Positions 8,140 through 51,979 of a stretch of DNA of 64,000 nt are shown in pieces. The first letter of the stretch is position 1. Each line of letters opens with the position of its first letter. The stretch comes from Candidatus Buchananbacteria bacterium. GTDB lineage: Bacteria; Patescibacteriota; Patescibacteriia; 2-01-FULL-39-33. The notes under the pieces are model-generated. The model saw nothing but the letters and a program-made list of their open reading frames with translations, did not search any database and was not told where the DNA came from. The position numbers and the translations under genes were made by a program. Where the stretch lies: assembly GCA_903859075.1 (NCBI GenBank), contig CAIOLF010000046.1, positions 20,671 to 84,670 of the forward strand. The letters are read 5' to 3'.

Positions 8140-9258
8140 ATGTCTGCAGGCCTAAAAAAATGGATCAATCAAGTGATTGAGCCGACCGGCATCCGGCTAG
8201 ACGGCCCCAATCATTGGGATCCGCAAATTAAAAACCCCAAACTTTACGATCGCGTCAAGGCGGAGGGATCGCTGGGACTTGGCGATGCTTACGTGGACGG
8301 CTGGTGGGAGTGCGAGCGCCTGGATGAATTTTTCCATCGGCTACTTTCAATAAACATTCATGAGCGCCTCGGGCTATCGCTGCCTATTATCCTAGGATTT
8401 TTAAAAGCCAAGCTGATCAATATGCAAGGAGTGCGGCGCGCTTTCCAAGTCGGCGAGAAGCATTACGATACCGGCAATGACTTGTTTGTCGCCATGCTCG
8501 GGAAAACCATGGCTTACAGCTGTGGCTACTGGAAAAACGCTTCCACTTTGGACGAGGCGCAGGAAGCCAAGCTTGATCTGATCTGCAAAAAATTATATTT
8601 GCGGCCGGACATGAAAATCTTAGATATCGGTTCCGGCTGGGGCAGCCTGGTCAGGCACGCCGCCAAAAATTACAACGTCAGCGCCGTGGGCCTCACTGTT
8701 TCTAAAGAACAAGCTAAATTGGCGACTGAATTGTGCACCGGACTGCCGGTGGAATTCCGCTTGCAAGACTATCGCACCTTAAATGAAAAATTCGACCGGG
8801 TGATTTCCGTCGGCATGTTTGAACATGTGGGAGTGAAAAATTACCGCACTTACATGGAAGTGGCCAAGCGCTGCTTGAAGCCGGACGGCCTCTCAATGCT
8901 CCATACTATTGGCAGTCTCAAATCCGGCAACAGCACCGATCCCTGGATCGGCAAATACATTTTCCCCAACGGCCAACTGCCGTCGGTCAAACAGATTGCC
9001 ACCGCCGCGGAAAAAATCTTTGTCATTGAAGATCTGCATAACTTCGGAATCTATTACGATAAGACATTGATGGCTTGGAAAGAGAATTTTGAAACCGCCT
9101 GGCCGCAGCTCAAAAATAGTTACAGCGAAAAATTCTACCGTATGTGGCGGTATTACCTGCTCTGTTGCGCCGGCGCCTTCCGCGCCCGCTCCATCCAGCT
9201 CTGGCAGATAGTGCTTTCGCCTCATGGAGTTCCTGGGGGCTACGATTCCATCAGATAG
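8140..9258 (+). CDS. cfa: cyclopropane-fatty-acyl-phospholipid synthase (SAM-dependent methyltransferase)
   Basis: 372 aa; aligns by eye along its length with Cfa (HYDTGNDLF..., ILDIGSGWGSL, VGLTVSKEQ, FDRVISVGMFEHVG, PNGQLPS, YYLLCCAGAFRARSIQLWQIVL). Confidence 0.9.
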   Translation: MSAGLKKWINQVIEPTGIRLDGPNHWDPQIKNPKLYDRVKAEGSLGLGDAYVDGWWECERLDEFFHRLLSINIHERLGLSLPIILGFLKAKLINMQGVRRAFQVGEKHYDTGNDLFVAMLGKTMAYSCGYWKNASTLDEAQEAKLDLICKKLYLRPDMKILDIGSGWGSLVRHAAKNYNVSAVGLTVSKEQAKLATELCTGLPVEFRLQDYRTLNEKFDRVISVGMFEHVGVKNYRTYMEVAKRCLKPDGLSMLHTIGSLKSGNSTDPWIGKYIFPNGQLPSVKQIATAAEKIFVIEDLHNFGIYYDKTLMAWKENFETAWPQLKNSYSEKFYRMWRYYLLCCAGAFRARSIQLWQIVLSPHGVPGGYDSIR

Positions 9259-11362: not shown

Positions 11363-11956
11363 TTATTGTTTTCTTTTTATTTCCAGCCAATCCGGTACCG
11401 GAGTAAAAGTAATTTCTTCCAAATGATCTATTTCTTCCTCGGTGACTTCATAATACTTTTGATAAGCCGTTTCCACGCTGCCATGCAGCGCCTCATTCCA
11501 ATCAAAGCCCAGCTTAGCGGCGACCGACCGCACATTTTCTTCCGTCTCCGCCTCAAGCTCCACAAAAGGCGGTATCCACGGCCAGGTGTCAATCGTCACT
11601 TCACAGCCGCTTAGCTCCCACGTTTCGCGCTTAGTCTCCTGATAGGAGCGGCAATCCAGTCCCGTGGCCAAGAGAAAGTCGCAAGCGGCGTCAAAATTAT
11701 CGACATTAAAAACTATTTCCTTCGTCCCCTGAAAAGTCCGGTCAACTAACCGCTTGTAGCTCATCGTAATCTTTTTGCCTTCATCCCGTACTCTGATCCA
11801 GGCGCCGATTTTCTCCAGGCGTTTATCAGAATAATCAAAAATCTTGCGTCGCATCAACACCTCCGCTTGGACTAGAGTCCCGCCATGACTTTTCAGCGCT
11901 TCCCGTAATTGCCGCGGATTAACGTCTAAGAATTTTGCTTCAACTTCAGTCTTCAT
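11363..11956 (-). CDS. CYTH-domain protein (triphosphate tunnel metalloenzyme family)
   Basis: 197 aa; N-terminal EVEAKF (ExExK signature), size and acidic-residue pattern typical of CYTH. Confidence 0.75.
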   Translation of the reverse strand: MKTEVEAKFLDVNPRQLREALKSHGGTLVQAEVLMRRKIFDYSDKRLEKIGAWIRVRDEGKKITMSYKRLVDRTFQGTKEIVFNVDNFDAACDFLLATGLDCRSYQETKRETWELSGCEVTIDTWPWIPPFVELEAETEENVRSVAAKLGFDWNEALHGSVETAYQKYYEVTEEEIDHLEEITFTPVPDWLEIKRKQ

Positions 11957-11958
11957 AG

Positions 11959-12822
11959 TTACTTTAGAATAATTTTTATTAATAAATCATTAATAAAATC
12001 AAAATCACCATCGCCGGTAATTACCGCATCAAACTTTTCTCTGTAAAGCTGCAGATTTTCTTCAATATTCTTATTTAAAAATCCGACCTTAATCAGATTA
12101 TCATAATTAAAACCGGTAATCATCTCCACGTCGTCCGAACCGTCGCCGAGTAGCAAGACATTTTTTCTTTCCTTGACCTTATCATAAAAAGAAAAATTGT
12201 CCAGCACGGTTTCTTCCTTATTAAAGGCATGAATAATCGGCTCCCTGACGGCAATTGCTCGACCGGCATCGTCCCAAATGAATTCATTAGAGACAATATA
12301 AACATTATCTGAAAGCAAATTCTGCCGCTTAAGATACAAAGAAATCGACTCTACTCCTAAACCGCTGGAAGACATAATCACCAAAGGAATGTCGCGCTCT
12401 CTTAAAAACTCAAAAAACTGCGCCACTCCCGAACGTAGCTGCAATCTTTGCGAGGTGATGGCTCGCTCAACATCTTTTTTCCGCAGGCCGGAAGCGATCA
12501 GCAGATCAAAATGCCTGGACCACCACTGCCGCATGGCCTCACGCTTTTCCGCGTGAGGCACTGACGGATCAATCTCGATCGCGTGATAATAATTGAACAA
12601 TTCTTTGGCTTTATCCGGATAGTCGGGCGTCAGATAGCCCTCGCTGCGCAAGACGGAGATTATTGAAGGCACTTCCTCCCCCGCCACAAACATCTTGGTA
12701 AGCGTACGATCAAAATCCGACAGAACGTGGAGTTTTTCCGCTCCGCCGATACTAATCGCTCTTTTAATCGACTCCAGACGCTGAGAATTAGAAATAATAA
12801 TATCTCCGGTCATATTAATCAT
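11959..12822 (-). CDS. HAD-superfamily pyrimidine 5'-nucleotidase-like protein (UMPH-1/cN-III family)
   Basis: 287 aa; motif I VLSDFDRTLTK, later LLLGDGSDD. Three bp downstream of the CYTH gene, so in an operon. Confidence 0.7.
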   Translation of the reverse strand: MINMTGDIIISNSQRLESIKRAISIGGAEKLHVLSDFDRTLTKMFVAGEEVPSIISVLRSEGYLTPDYPDKAKELFNYYHAIEIDPSVPHAEKREAMRQWWSRHFDLLIASGLRKKDVERAITSQRLQLRSGVAQFFEFLRERDIPLVIMSSSGLGVESISLYLKRQNLLSDNVYIVSNEFIWDDAGRAIAVREPIIHAFNKEETVLDNFSFYDKVKERKNVLLLGDGSDDVEMITGFNYDNLIKVGFLNKNIEENLQLYREKFDAVITGDGDFDFINDLLIKIILK

Positions 12823-14286: not shown

Positions 14287-15519
14287 TTAACAGACAAAGG
14301 TCAGCGCTTTGCCCATTTGGTCGCCACGGCCGGTCCGGCCGATGCGATGGACATAATCGTCATAGGTAGCCGGGACATCATAATTAATCACGTGGCTGAC
14401 GTTGGGAATATCCAGGCCTCTGGCGGCGACATCGGTCGCTACCAGAATTTTGGTTTTATTCTCTTTAAATAATCTTAAGGCCGCTTGGCGCTTGCTTTGG
14501 TTCTTGTTGCCATGAATGGCGTCCGCTTTAAAGCCCTTTTGAATCAGACCAACGGATAATCTCTCCACGCCGAATTTGGTCCGGCCGAAAACCAACACTT
14601 TGGTGAATTCCGGCTTGGCCAAAAGATTATGCAGGACGCTTATTTTTTCGTGCTCGTGGCTGATTTTGATAATGTCCTGATCGACATTCTTGGCAGTGTC
14701 TCCGGTCTTGACGGAAATCGTCACCGGGCTGGTTAAAAATTCTTTGACTAGCTTATCAATTTCCCGGCTGACGGTAGCGGAGAAAAATAAGGTCTGGCGA
14801 GTAACCGGCATCAGCGACATGATAAATCTCATATCATTGACAAAGCCCATATCCAGCATGCGGTCGGCTTCGTCAAGCACTAAAGTGGAAAATCTTTCCG
14901 GACGGATCAAGCCGCGCTCGATCAGATCCTTGAGCCGGCCCGGCGTGCCAATGACAAAATTATAGCCGCGGCGCAAATCGGAAATCTGGCGGCCGATGGA
15001 AGCGCCGCCGACGCAGCAGACGGAAAAAATCCTCAATCGTCCGCGGAACGCAATCAATTCTTGATTGATCTGATCAGCCAATTCATGAGTCGGTACGATG
15101 ATTAAAATATTTTCCCGGTTATCCAATATGACTTTATGAAGCAATGGCAAAAGAAAAGCCGCCGTTTTGCCGGTGCCGGTATTGGCAACACCGACCACAT
15201 CGCACCCCTCCAGAATCGCCGGAATCGTCTGGTCTTGGATCGGGGTGGGAGTGACATAACCTTTGGTGACAATATTTTCTTTCAATCTTTGATCAATAGC
15301 AAAATCAGCGAAAGCATGTTGCGGCTGATAGGGCTTGGATTCGGTTTGGGGCTTGGCTTTGCAGACAAACCGGGAGCAATCAATATATTGATCGCGAAAA
15401 CCGCCGCGTCTGGCAAGCGGTCTTTTTCCTCCAAAAGACGGCCGGCCGCTTGAAGCGGCTAAGCGGCGTCTAGGAGAACGGCCGAGGCGAGAGCCCCGTC
15501 CGAAATTCCTGGTAGACAT
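14287..15519 (-). CDS. DEAD-box ATP-dependent RNA helicase
   Basis: 410 aa; Q-motif region, GTGKTAAF (motif I), VLDEADRMLDMGF (DEAD box), SAT, HRIGRTGRG (motif VI). Unusual RG-rich N-terminal extension. Confidence 0.9.
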   Translation of the reverse strand: MSTRNFGRGSRLGRSPRRRLAASSGRPSFGGKRPLARRGGFRDQYIDCSRFVCKAKPQTESKPYQPQHAFADFAIDQRLKENIVTKGYVTPTPIQDQTIPAILEGCDVVGVANTGTGKTAAFLLPLLHKVILDNRENILIIVPTHELADQINQELIAFRGRLRIFSVCCVGGASIGRQISDLRRGYNFVIGTPGRLKDLIERGLIRPERFSTLVLDEADRMLDMGFVNDMRFIMSLMPVTRQTLFFSATVSREIDKLVKEFLTSPVTISVKTGDTAKNVDQDIIKISHEHEKISVLHNLLAKPEFTKVLVFGRTKFGVERLSVGLIQKGFKADAIHGNKNQSKRQAALRLFKENKTKILVATDVAARGLDIPNVSHVINYDVPATYDDYVHRIGRTGRGDQMGKALTFVC

Positions 15520-15755
15520 GAGTTAGGTTTTAATTTTTAGCTTTAAAGCAGACAGGCCACCGGCCATTCATAAATTTCCATCAAAGCTAAATAATTAAAG
15601 CTAGAGTTAAGAAATGCCTGAATTGGGATTTCTTAAAATGGAACTAAATGAGATATACTTTAAGAACTTAAGTATAGCACGCATTAATGTTTTTGTCAAT
15701 TTAAAAACCTCCGCCGGGAGATTTTTGTATTAAATTGACTCAATTGGGCGGCTAT

Positions 15756-16842
15756 TTAAAACAGGTTTGAATTTACCAGCAGTTGCGTTTTCTGGACGCT
15801 GTTCTGATAAATTAGGCGGCTGGCAGCGGAGATAAACGGCCGATTGACAATTTTTTCATTATTTTGAAGATAGTCCAGCATTTTTTGCGGCGTCTTTTTC
15901 AGGATGTTCATCATGGAGTTGAAACTGGCGGCAGAATACATAGAAGTGAAGTCCAAATCATTAAACAGGCCAAGGATTTTGTTTTTATGATAAAGTTGAT
16001 GATCATTGAAAGCCCAATTGTCATGGATGGCGATATAATTAGAAATCTTGTTAGCCAAGCGCTTCGGGTAATTCACTTGCCTTAAAATCTTTTTAGCGAT
16101 TTGTTTGCCGGCTTGCATATGGCTTTTTCTGGAATCGCTGGCAAAGGGACTGTCTATCTTAGCCGCGCTATAACCCACGTCATGCAGCAGGATAAACGGA
16201 ATAAAAATCTGTTCCTCAATATTTTCCTGCTTGGCCAGCAGCAAGCTCTGCTTAATGAGCCATTCAATATGTTTTTCCGTATAGTCCTGTCCCTGATGAT
16301 TGTATCTTTTAGCTAAACGCCAAATCTTGTTATAAATTTCCGGCATAGGGTAGCTCTGCCAATCATGGGAAAAAGTATCTTCGGCATTCTCCAGATAATT
16401 ATTTTCATAAATAAGCTTTTGCCATTTATCAATAATATTTTGGTCAAAAATGTTGCCGATCATTACCTCGCAGCAGACATCATCCTTATCTTCCGGCATA
16501 ATAACCTGGCCATCCGGATTAATCATAAAATAAGCATTGGCTCTCTGGCGCCTGGGGGAGATAATAATATTTATCTGCCGGCCATAGGCGGCCATAATCT
16601 TTTCCGACTCGGCCAAAAAAGTTTTTTCATCAATTAATAATTTTTTTGATATCCGATCGCAGTAGCGGCTCACCGCCGGTAATAGTGATGGATTTGACTC
16701 CCTTCTTTGCCAGCAAAGAAAAAACTTTTTGCAGTTGTGAAAAATCCAATTCCGGAATATTCTTGGGGCCATAGCAAAAATCGCAATCCTTGGTGCAACG
16801 GGAGGTAACGCGGAAAGTGACGATTTCCGGGAAATGGTCCAT
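15756..16842 (-). pseudogene. radical-SAM (CX3CX2C) / HD-domain protein interrupted by a single-base frameshift in an A7 run; either a pseudogene or a homopolymer sequencing error
   Basis: ORF 16630-16842 (RCTKDCDFCYG, GGEPLL) stops after DIKKIIN. Removing one A from aaaaaaa at 16641-16647 reads DIKKLLIDEKTFLAE and continues into ORF 15756-16772, which carries an HD motif (H..IPFILLHDVGY, later H and D). Confidence 0.55.
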
Positions 16843-16927
16843 AAATAAACTTAATTTAAGTACATAATACTCCTTTTTCTGGCCGATGTTAATGCCCGTT
16901 TTCCCCTTTTTAAATCTACAAGCAATA

Positions 16928-16956
16928 TTGACAAAATGGCATTATCATAGTAATCT
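16928..16956 (+). promoter_or_regulatory. putative promoter with exact -35 TTGACA, 17-nt spacer and weak -10 TAATCT
   Basis: Read directly; 46 nt upstream of ATG at 17002. Confidence 0.3.
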
Positions 16957-17001
16957 CTGAGGTAAGAATTGATAGCGGAGAATCAACGAGGAGGGATCGC
17001 C

Positions 17002-17613
17002 ATGTCGCCATTTTATAGAAATACGCATGATGTTGAGGTAGGGTCGCTTATTGCCAGTGGTATTGCCACGAACGAACAACATGCGGAACGAATCCTGAAA
17101 GAAACAAGCAAGCGGAGGGAGCGGGCCGATCTGTACATTTTCTATACTAATCGCCACGTAGTCAAAACGTGCCTAGCGACACGTCCTGTCGATGAACGGC
17201 CGTACAACGGCTCAAATGTCCGGGTAGCCACCATTCCTTCGGGATCAATGAGTCGGATCGGAAAACTCCCGGGATTAACCAGCTCGTTAGCGATTGGCGC
17301 GTTGAAGGAGCTCGTCCCGAAAGCCGAGCTTGCCCAGGAAGCCACCGGTCAGGGAATCAAGCTGGTGGCCTTCGTGAGGAACTTCCAAATTGACGGCAAA
17401 TTAGGCGTCTTCCTGAGCTCCACGTCAGCCGAAGCCATTCACGCTCAGGGAAGGAAGACCCTTGATGAGAAAGAAAATCTGCTTCGCGTAGAATTCTCTC
17501 TCATCGGCGGCGATTTTGTTCTGGGCATGTTCAGCGCCTGGAACCAGCAGCCGTTTGGCGATAGCGTTTCACTGGTTCTGTGGATGCCCAGGTCGCAGAC
17601 CATCGCCTTGTGA
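17002..17613 (+). CDS. hypothetical protein (GC-rich)
   Basis: Start moved to ATG at 17002 (MSPFYRN), which has GAGGAGGG upstream. About 58% GC. No motif recognised. Confidence 0.5.
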   Translation: MSPFYRNTHDVEVGSLIASGIATNEQHAERILKETSKRRERADLYIFYTNRHVVKTCLATRPVDERPYNGSNVRVATIPSGSMSRIGKLPGLTSSLAIGALKELVPKAELAQEATGQGIKLVAFVRNFQIDGKLGVFLSSTSAEAIHAQGRKTLDEKENLLRVEFSLIGGDFVLGMFSAWNQQPFGDSVSLVLWMPRSQTIAL

Positions 17614-24145: not shown

Positions 24146-24212
24146 GGGATATTTTTTGTTTTTGTACTCATTTATCCTAACAATTAATCTAGGTATAATA
24201 AGTACCAAAATG

Positions 24213-24287
24213 GGTGAGTGACCGGGGTTGAACCGGCAACCGCTCGGACCACAACCGAGTGCTCTAACCAATTGAGCTACACTCACC
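24213..24287 (-). tRNA. tRNA-His (anticodon GTG), with encoded G-1; CCA not encoded
   Basis: Sense sequence GGTGAGTGTAGCTCAATTGGTTAGAGCACTCGGTTGTGGTCCGAGCGGTTGCCGGTTCAACCCCGGTCACTCACC folded by hand: 8-bp acceptor including G-1:C73, anticodon loop TTGTGGT. Confidence 0.85.
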
Positions 24288-24291
24288 ATAA

Positions 24292-24363
24292 TGCTCCCAC
24301 CAGGACTCGAACCTGGATTTTAGGTTCCGGAAACCCATGTTCTATCCCTTGAACTATAGGAGC
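24292..24363 (-). tRNA. tRNA-Arg (anticodon CCG)
   Basis: Sense GCTCCTATAGTTCAAGGGATAGAACATGGGTTTCCGGAACCTAAAATCCAGGTTCGAGTCCTGGTGGGAGCA: cloverleaf folded by hand, T-loop TTCGAGT, anticodon loop TTCCGGA. Confidence 0.8.
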
Positions 24364-24407
24364 TGAATTGTTTTATCAAAATAGATTAGTTCAATTCCTA
24401 TCTTGAC

Positions 24408-24482
24408 TGGTGTCCCCGCTAGGAGTCGAACCTAGATCCAGAGCTTAGAAGGCTCTTGTTCTATCCGTTGAACTACGGGGAC
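24408..24482 (-). tRNA. tRNA-Arg (anticodon TCT), CCA encoded
   Basis: Sense GTCCCCGTAGTTCAACGGATAGAACAAGAGCCTTCTAAGCTCTGGATCTAGGTTCGACTCCTAGCGGGGACACCA; anticodon loop CTTCTAA. Confidence 0.85.
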
Positions 24483-50892: not shown

Positions 50893-51979
50893 ATGGACCA
50901 TTTCCCGGAAATCGTCACTTTCCGCGTTACCTCCCGTTGCACCAAGGATTGCGATTTTTGCTATGGCCCCAAGAATATTCCGGAATTGGATTTTTCACAA
51001 CTGCAAAAAGTTTTTTCTTTGCTGGCAAAGAAGGGAGTCAAATCCATCACTATTACCGGCGGTGAGCCGCTACTGCGATCGGATATCAAAAAAATTATTA
51101 ATTGATGAAAAAACTTTTTTGGCCGAGTCGGAAAAGATTATGGCCGCCTATGGCCGGCAGATAAATATTATTATCTCCCCCAGGCGCCAGAGAGCCAATG
51201 CTTATTTTATGATTAATCCGGATGGCCAGGTTATTATGCCGGAAGATAAGGATGATGTCTGCTGCGAGGTAATGATCGGCAACATTTTTGACCAAAATAT
51301 TATTGATAAATGGCAAAAGCTTATTTATGAAAATAATTATCTGGAGAATGCCGAAGATACTTTTTCCCATGATTGGCAGAGCTACCCTATGCCGGAAATT
51401 TATAACAAGATTTGGCGTTTAGCTAAAAGATACAATCATCAGGGACAGGACTATACGGAAAAACATATTGAATGGCTCATTAAGCAGAGCTTGCTGCTGG
51501 CCAAGCAGGAAAATATTGAGGAACAGATTTTTATTCCGTTTATCCTGCTGCATGACGTGGGTTATAGCGCGGCTAAGATAGACAGTCCCTTTGCCAGCGA
51601 TTCCAGAAAAAGCCATATGCAAGCCGGCAAACAAATCGCTAAAAAGATTTTAAGGCAAGTGAATTACCCGAAGCGCTTGGCTAACAAGATTTCTAATTAT
51701 ATCGCCATCCATGACAATTGGGCTTTCAATGATCATCAACTTTATCATAAAAACAAAATCCTTGGCCTGTTTAATGATTTGGACTTCACTTCTATGTATT
51801 CTGCCGCCAGTTTCAACTCCATGATGAACATCCTGAAAAAGACGCCGCAAAAAATGCTGGACTATCTTCAAAATAATGAAAAAATTGTCAATCGGCCGTT
51901 TATCTCCGCTGCCAGCCGCCTAATTTATCAGAACAGCGTCCAGAAAACGCAACTGCTGGTAAATTCAAACCTGTTTTAA
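50893..51979 (+). pseudogene. mirror copy of 15756-16842: frameshifted radical-SAM/HD gene, carrying the same A7 frameshift
   Basis: Both ORF fragments are identical, at 50893-51105 and 50963-51979. Confidence 0.55.

Follow-up and report, generated by a model that had tools for sequence, protein, structure and literature searches.

Within a 64,000-nucleotide (nt) stretch of DNA from Candidatus Buchananbacteria bacterium (contig CAIOLF010000046.1 of assembly GCA_903859075.1; here called the window), the minus-strand locus at positions 15756-16842 is very probably a young pseudogene of a rare gene in which a viperin-like radical-SAM domain was fused to a predicted HD phosphohydrolase domain. 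A preliminary description of the sequence had ascribed the broken frame of this locus to a 1-nt frameshift within a run of seven A residues (A7), but alignment with intact orthologues reveals a single 365-nt gap, with the A7 run at its junction. Of the outcomes that had been offered, a genuine pseudogene is thus the favoured one, although its cause is a deletion and not the frameshift originally proposed. The features of the locus are as follows.

16630-16842, minus strand: N-terminal remnant, an open reading frame (ORF) of 70 amino acids (aa) whose first 66 codons correspond by homology to residues 1-66 of P0001, an intact orthologue.
15756-16640, minus strand: C-terminal remainder, an open frame without internal stops, homologous to P0001 residues 189-483.
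About 16389-16640, minus strand: final strands of the radical-SAM domain with its C-terminal extension, part of the C-terminal remainder.
15759-16388, minus strand: predicted HD-superfamily phosphohydrolase domain of 210 aa, with the stop codon at 15756-15758.
15756-16616, minus strand: ORF of 286 aa with a TTG start, 100% identical to P0003 (NCBI and ENA record).
16864-16892, minus strand: promoter-like TTAACA-17-TATTAT, a consensus match only, 22 nt upstream of the ATG.
50893-51979, plus strand: mirror copy of the whole locus, base-for-base identical, in the second arm of a palindrome.

An ATG at 16842 opens the 70-codon N-terminal remnant, which encodes MDHFPEIVTFRVTSRCTKDCDFCYGP...ITITGGEPLLRSDIKKIIN and carries the iron-sulfur (Fe-S) motif CTKDCDFC (CX3CX2C; C16, C20 and C23) together with GGEPLL. 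Both motifs can be read on the minus strand as the preliminary description stated, and its account of the A7 run at 16641-16647 and of the stop directly after it was equally accurate: the run is followed by ATT ATT AAT TGA, so that codon 66 is succeeded by four out-of-frame codons (K-I-I-N) and the stop at 16630-16632. A second ORF (16772 to 15756, minus strand) overlaps this one in a different frame. Removing one A from the run fuses the two, as had been proposed, but the product then comprises 361 codons instead of the estimated 395.

A homology search with the joined sequence returned 21 proteins, 13 of which are uninterrupted from end to end (477-496 aa), the closest being P0001 (483 aa, 84% aa identity, E = 4e-198) and P0002 (483 aa, 82%). 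Intact radical-SAM-HD fusions, which the preliminary description had suggested looking for among related genomes, therefore exist. All 13 hold about 122 extra residues, absent in the window, between GGEPLLRSDIK and LLIDEK. The missing segment was mapped by DNA alignment of the window with L001 and L002, the Logan contigs that encode P0001. The coding region shows one gap of 365 columns and no other, flanked on either side by DNA that is 82-83% identical; the gene measures 1452 nt in L001 vs 1087 nt in the window, and P0001 residues 67-188, 122 in all, are absent from the 361-codon product.

At the junction, the left flank in the window reads ...GAT ATC AAA (D-I-K66) and the right flank AAA TTA TTA ATT GAT (K189-L-L-I-D), with one extra A between them, and the corresponding places in L001 read GAT ATT AAG GAA... 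and ...GAC AAA TTA TTG. Judged from these alignments, the 365-nt deletion brought together two short A-rich stretches, whose junction is the A7 run, and the frame changes because 365 = 3 × 121 + 2. An in-frame deletion of 366 nt followed by a slip that added one A is indistinguishable from a single deletion of 365 nt and leads to the same conclusion.

The sequence of events could be reconstructed as follows. The ancestor would have been a gene of about 483 codons, encoding a viperin-like radical-SAM domain (residues 1 to about 285) and an HD phosphohydrolase domain (about 288-483). One internal deletion, 365 bp long, that begins and ends in short A-rich sequence (AAA/AAR) took out codons 67-188, and with them strands beta3-beta6, their helices and the invariant W-K-x-Y-Q that aligns with the viperin motif RWKVFQ. 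As this length is not divisible by three, everything downstream was thrown out of frame, the fused A-tracts now appearing as A7; microhomology presumably mediated the deletion. In having a single internal deletion that ends in short A-tracts, a frame disruption as its by-product and no further lesions yet, the locus resembles ordinary bacterial deletion pseudogenes, from which it differs only in the unusual architecture of the parent gene.

The consequences for the protein can be gauged from the AlphaFold model of P0001 (predicted local distance difference test, pLDDT, 88.5). The lost segment comprises strands 78-82, 101-105, 141-148 and 170-175 (beta3-beta6) as well as helices, which amounts to four of the six strands of the radical-SAM core; the invariant W171-K172-x-Y174-Q175 goes with them. 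The complete (beta/alpha)6 partial TIM-barrel core, present in intact orthologues, is missing in the window copy. Similarly, the joined 361-aa product matches the Pfam Radical_SAM profile (PF04055; E = 1.2e-9, 38.9 bits vs a cut-off of 29.5; CX3CX2C present) only over profile positions 3-73 of 166, where orthologues span 3-139 to 3-166, and NCBIfam families match only its first 60-90 residues. Radical-SAM activity has probably been lost from the window copy, because a remnant that retains the Fe-S motif but lacks four of the six barrel strands cannot form the site for SAM and substrate.

The 70-aa product recurs unchanged among the calls of two other metagenome assemblies, namely L007 (ENA ERZ18627221, a 567-nt scaffold from SAMEA6872784) and L008 (ERZ27313101, a 512-nt k141 MEGAHIT contig). 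Each matches the window from end to end with 100% identity, the A7 run and its two flanks included, and at the level of assembly consensus the length of the run is constant in all three. In a third other assembly, L006 gives a 100% match to the 3' end of the gene and to the downstream helicase gene. The identical junctions in L007 and L008 make a homopolymer read error, or a collapse specific to the palindrome, very unlikely. L007 and L008 both end at exactly window position 16953, 111 nt upstream of the gene. The adjoining 0.6 kb (16969-17613) has a guanine-cytosine (GC) content of 0.51-0.57 vs 0.41 in the gene and contains a plus-strand ORF of 214 aa with no match in Pfam or PADLOC; the segment around 16953/16969-17613 may be strain-variable or repeated.

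These observations bear on two explanations in which the genome itself would be sound. According to the first, put forward in the preliminary description as a sequencing error or long-read artefact, A6 was read as A7 in an otherwise intact gene, or a single nucleotide was inserted, in connection with a fold-back artefact. The contig does hold a perfect zero-spacer palindrome of 30 kb, a typical artefact, and removal of one A does yield a single frame; yet the protein so restored is without the 122 residues found in 13 of 13 uninterrupted orthologues, and the A7 run and its flanks are the same in two other assemblies, one of them from MEGAHIT k141, leaving this explanation highly improbable. 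According to the second, the assembly has collapsed at the 365-nt gap and the gene is intact in the real genome. Although the source contig is mis-assembled elsewhere, at the palindrome, the edges of the gap carry no repeat able to cause collapse but just 3-4 nt of A, the sequence is the same to the base in three assemblies made with different pipelines, and in the protein database no intact allele exceeds 84% identity to the window protein. We consider a collapse just as implausible as a read error.

The palindrome itself is a perfect inverted repeat of 30,133 nt with zero spacer (3735-33867 vs 33868-64000) that reaches the end of the window, a pattern typical of a fold-back (chimeric) assembly artefact. 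Because its two arms form a perfect palindrome, the mirror copy at 50893-51979 adds no independent information and is no independent evidence; the preliminary description had rightly noted that it carries the identical frameshift and that the arms are not independent. The centre of the palindrome falls within mirrored ORFs, and a short-read contig that is 100% identical to one arm stops short of this centre. Rfam found only tRNAs in the palindrome arm, of which tRNA-His(GTG), tRNA-Arg(CCG) and tRNA-Arg(TCT) are clustered at window positions 24212-24482 on the minus strand. At the radical-SAM/HD locus, the palindromic contig has been shown to be base-accurate.

A programmed +1 ribosomal frameshift, transcriptional slippage on the A-run or a phase-variable contingency locus would also place a homopolymer at the junction of two frames, as seen here. 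Furthermore, the orthologue in the Patescibacteria metagenome-assembled genome (MAG) SO_2017_LW4_52 (L004, L005, L011) is likewise split, into ORFs of 91 and 402 aa, and would also need a +1 shift. Its break is a T8 run where T7 keeps the frame (AAA ATT TTT TTG GAC, L004 7993-8003), and removal of one T gives 482 uninterrupted codons. However, this break, at about codons 80-82, lies some 15 codons downstream of the window junction (after codon 66), and the two are unlike in kind. As they differ in kind and position, they are best read, from the sequences, as independent inactivations and not as a conserved recoding site. Moreover, 13 orthologues read straight through without a break, the shifted product of the window would be without its catalytic core (four of the six core strands), and run length is invariant across three assemblies. 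Recoding in any of these forms, which had been listed among the possible outcomes as a programmed frameshift site, is the least probable explanation of all, and a programmed frameshift can for practical purposes be dismissed. A gene for a CMAS-type methyltransferase of 372 aa lies about 6 kb from the broken gene in both genomes and in the same relative orientation (window 8140-9258, plus strand; L004 15078-16196, minus strand), and may be a synteny anchor.

The deletion appears to be recent. The window preserves each of the 17 family-invariant residues located in the first 66 positions, and its radical-SAM tail and HD domain have likewise lost none of theirs; the remnants contain no additional stops or frameshifts. 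Ratios of non-synonymous to synonymous substitution (dN/dS) against L001 are 0.175 for the N-terminal remnant, 0.163 for the radical-SAM tail and 0.053 for the HD part, with 0.08 for the entire C-terminal remainder. The event is taken to be recent because the non-functional N-terminal remnant is as well preserved as the rest.

The same figures have been considered in support of domain fission, in which the radical-SAM half is dead while a stand-alone HD phosphohydrolase continues to be made from the C-terminal ORF, starting at TTG 16616 or ATG 16598, 14-32 nt past the upstream stop and possibly by reinitiation. The C-terminal frame of the window is fully open, its invariant metal-ligand residues are all kept at a dN/dS of 0.05, and the promoter-like site is retained. 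The HD-like domain is also found as a separate gene of about 190 aa in some 47 species-representative genomes, in none of which a viperin-like gene lies within 6 kb. However, the function-less N-terminal remnant is equally intact, so that intactness reflects the recency of the event; the product would be burdened with about 85 residues of orphan radical-SAM tail; and neither candidate start is preceded by an obvious Shine-Dalgarno sequence. Continued translation of this kind is therefore regarded as unlikely, though a good deal less so than a technical error or recoding. The 286-aa ORF begins 14 nt past the stop of the N-terminal remnant, and neither PADLOC nor Pfam gave a match for its product. 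The 58 nt upstream of the ATG are conserved between the window and L001, and the CTCCCGGCGGAG-TTTTT hairpin past the stop codon went unreported in the terminator scan. Further downstream, a near-consensus promoter (TTGACA-17-TATACT with an upstream TG, 15671-15699, minus strand) precedes a leader of about 150 nt, to 15519, ahead of a DEAD-box helicase gene (14287-15519, minus strand).

Several points weigh against a young deletion pseudogene. The open C-terminal frame and its low dN/dS are equally compatible with continued function of that part. Support for the junction is at the level of assembly consensus, and the assemblies that share it may stem from one site or study, in which case the allele is real there though not necessarily fixed everywhere. 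The size of the deletion is set against an 84%-identical orthologue and could differ in the true ancestor by in-frame insertions or deletions, with the same effect on the frame. P0004, whose C-terminal part is 86% identical, lies on a contig that ends 17 nt before the ATG and is uninformative about the deletion. A metagenome scan for intact or deleted alleles of the same species, with a degenerate GGEPLLRSDIK pattern, yielded 39 loci, all of them unrelated radical-SAM genes, with no blastn match to the window in any of the 39.

In place of the small radical-SAM/activase-like domain that had been proposed from the broken sequence, intact copies are predicted to hold a full viperin-like domain of about 285 aa, as indicated by NCBIfam, PADLOC and Foldseek. 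Their best NCBIfam match is NF038283, "viperin family antiviral radical SAM protein" (E = 3e-22 to 6e-26, profile positions 3-250 of 281), with scores of 79-91 bits for the orthologues, 61-72 for two further fusion representatives and 71-117 for relatives with the radical-SAM domain only, against a curated cut-off of 180. Ten of the 12 scanned proteins have it as their best match (it ranks second for P0028 and eleventh for P0024), and MoaA profiles score below it (58-71 vs 79-91 bits). The PADLOC profile pVip (PDLC02903) matches the orthologues over positions 2-226 of 257 (E = 5e-29). In a Foldseek search of the PDB with the P0001 model, the top four hits (9DFN, 6Q2P, 7N7I and 5VSL; template modelling (TM) scores of 0.74-0.77 normalised to the target, about 290 aligned columns) and 14 of the top 15 are viperins, with MoaA and SPASM maturases ranking behind them. 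A family profile run against PDB sequences likewise placed viperin-like enzymes first, with WKIYQ aligned to RWKVFQ. Sequence and model thus point to a full viperin-like domain, albeit not to a canonical viperin by the NCBI criterion.

With prokaryotic viperins (NF038283, PADLOC PDLC02903/02904) and eukaryotic viperin/RSAD2, the intact orthologues have CX3CX2C and GGEP in common, along with the motifs W-K-x-(Y/F)-Q and (K/R)-x-x-T-V-V-T. They also share the full-length fold, including the C-terminal extension, with viperin structures (6Q2P, 5VSL; 9DFN and 7N7I from T. virens). In contrast to viperins, the fusion family has the N-terminal motif FRITSRC...CYGP instead of NYHFTR.C...CFH, does not conserve the arginine of the RWK motif and carries an HD domain, and the window copy has lost the core altogether. 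Close relatives of the viperin-like domain are fused to TIR_2, WD40 propellers, AsnC/HTH or a methyltransferase (P0042, P0052, P0039, P0065), architectures typical of conflict systems.

The C-terminal domain is, on sequence and fold, a predicted HD-superfamily metal-dependent phosphohydrolase, in agreement with the motif that had been recognised earlier. The window retains HIEW, LLHDVGY, HMQAG, IHDNW and NDLD, and the metal-ligand residues H313, H342, D343, H363, H395, D396 and D417 of P0001 are invariant across 13 sequences, as are the same ligands in the numbering of the window domain (H40, H69, D70, H90, H122, D123 and D144) across 16. Against Pfam HD (PF01966, gathering threshold 22 bits) the window scores 12.2 and the fusion orthologues 16-20 bits, while six of 10 stand-alone homologues pass with 23-33 bits. 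A sequence search of the PDB with the domain detected no relative, leaving the fold comparison alone informative, and in this comparison the domain adopts the HD fold. YpgQ-type and other small HD phosphohydrolases (2PQ7, 5DQV/5IHY YpgQ, 6Z3N, small alarmone hydrolases and HDDC2) have the same H...HD...H...HD...D constellation, and the stand-alone homologues of the C-terminal domain resemble them in passing PF01966, but sequence identity to this domain is only 8-15%.

The fusion is rare. A profile search of 1.84 billion representative proteins found it in full in four clusters (P0013, P0014, P0023, P0024), together with many proteins that have either domain alone or in other fusions; wherever an organism is named, the fusion loci belong to Patescibacteria or Berkelbacteria. 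A survey of 185,579 species-representative genomes recovered the fusion from two MAGs, one of Patescibacteria and one of Berkelbacteria; the radical-SAM domain was present by itself at nine loci with E < 1e-20 (13 with E < 1e-5), and the HD-like domain without a viperin-like gene at about 47 loci, nearly all of them genes of about 190 aa. These stand-alone HD-like loci (L018-L063) come mostly from Woesearchaeota/Nanoarchaeota and in some cases from Patescibacteria, with 30-45% identity to the C-terminal domain.

Across the 60 loci whose neighbours were analysed, neither domain has a conserved partner gene, and Pfam and PADLOC returned nothing for the unknown neighbours. The GC content of the gene is 0.41 in the window (15756-16842) and 0.43 in L001 (1548-2999) vs 0.50-0.61 in flanking genes, a foreign composition in both that suggests horizontal acquisition. 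Like known defence genes, the gene occurs singly among neighbours that are not conserved and has an atypical GC content; together with the fusions, these sequence features would be compatible with a mobile gene of the defence type.

Published viperin fusions involve kinases, an E3 ligase, a triphosphatase/cyclase and a reverse transcriptase (bioRxiv 10.1101/2023.09.13.557418), and no description of a viperin-HD fusion was found in the literature. Downstream of the locus, at a distance of 3-5 kb, its strand also encodes a CYTH (triphosphate tunnel) protein and a UMPH-1 pyrimidine 5'-nucleotidase (window 11363-11956 and 11959-12822, both minus strand). A predicted triphosphatase/cyclase domain is a published fusion partner of viperin, and the proximity of the CYTH gene is perhaps a coincidence.

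By analogy with viperins, the radical-SAM domain of intact copies would convert a nucleoside triphosphate, after which the phosphate chain, in either product or substrate, would be the target of the HD domain. If the enzyme serves in defence, the viperin-like domain would make a 3'-deoxy-3',4'-didehydro (ddh) nucleotide or a related modified nucleoside triphosphate, and the HD domain would process the phosphate chain, for example to the monophosphate or nucleoside, or for self-protection. It could tentatively be proposed, though we hold it doubtful, that the intact relatives of about 480 aa are self-contained nucleotide-modifying defence enzymes of ultra-small bacteria, and that the window has captured a very recent loss of the radical-SAM part that possibly left a working HD domain behind.

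To summarize, the analysis removes a false lead, as the window bears the signature of neither a programmed frameshift nor a sequencing error. The architecture of the parent gene is the only novel element, and mildly so, the lesion itself being that of an ordinary pseudogene. The immediate value of the finding is modest because the fusion is seldom found, and then in uncultured lineages only, and the window copy is dead. A viperin-like enzyme covalently joined to an HD phosphohydrolase would nevertheless be a new partner for viperin chemistry, for which the known partners are mainly nucleotide kinases. If a working HD domain has indeed been left behind, the window would show in progress a route by which the widespread stand-alone HD genes of DPANN archaea and Patescibacteria could come about.
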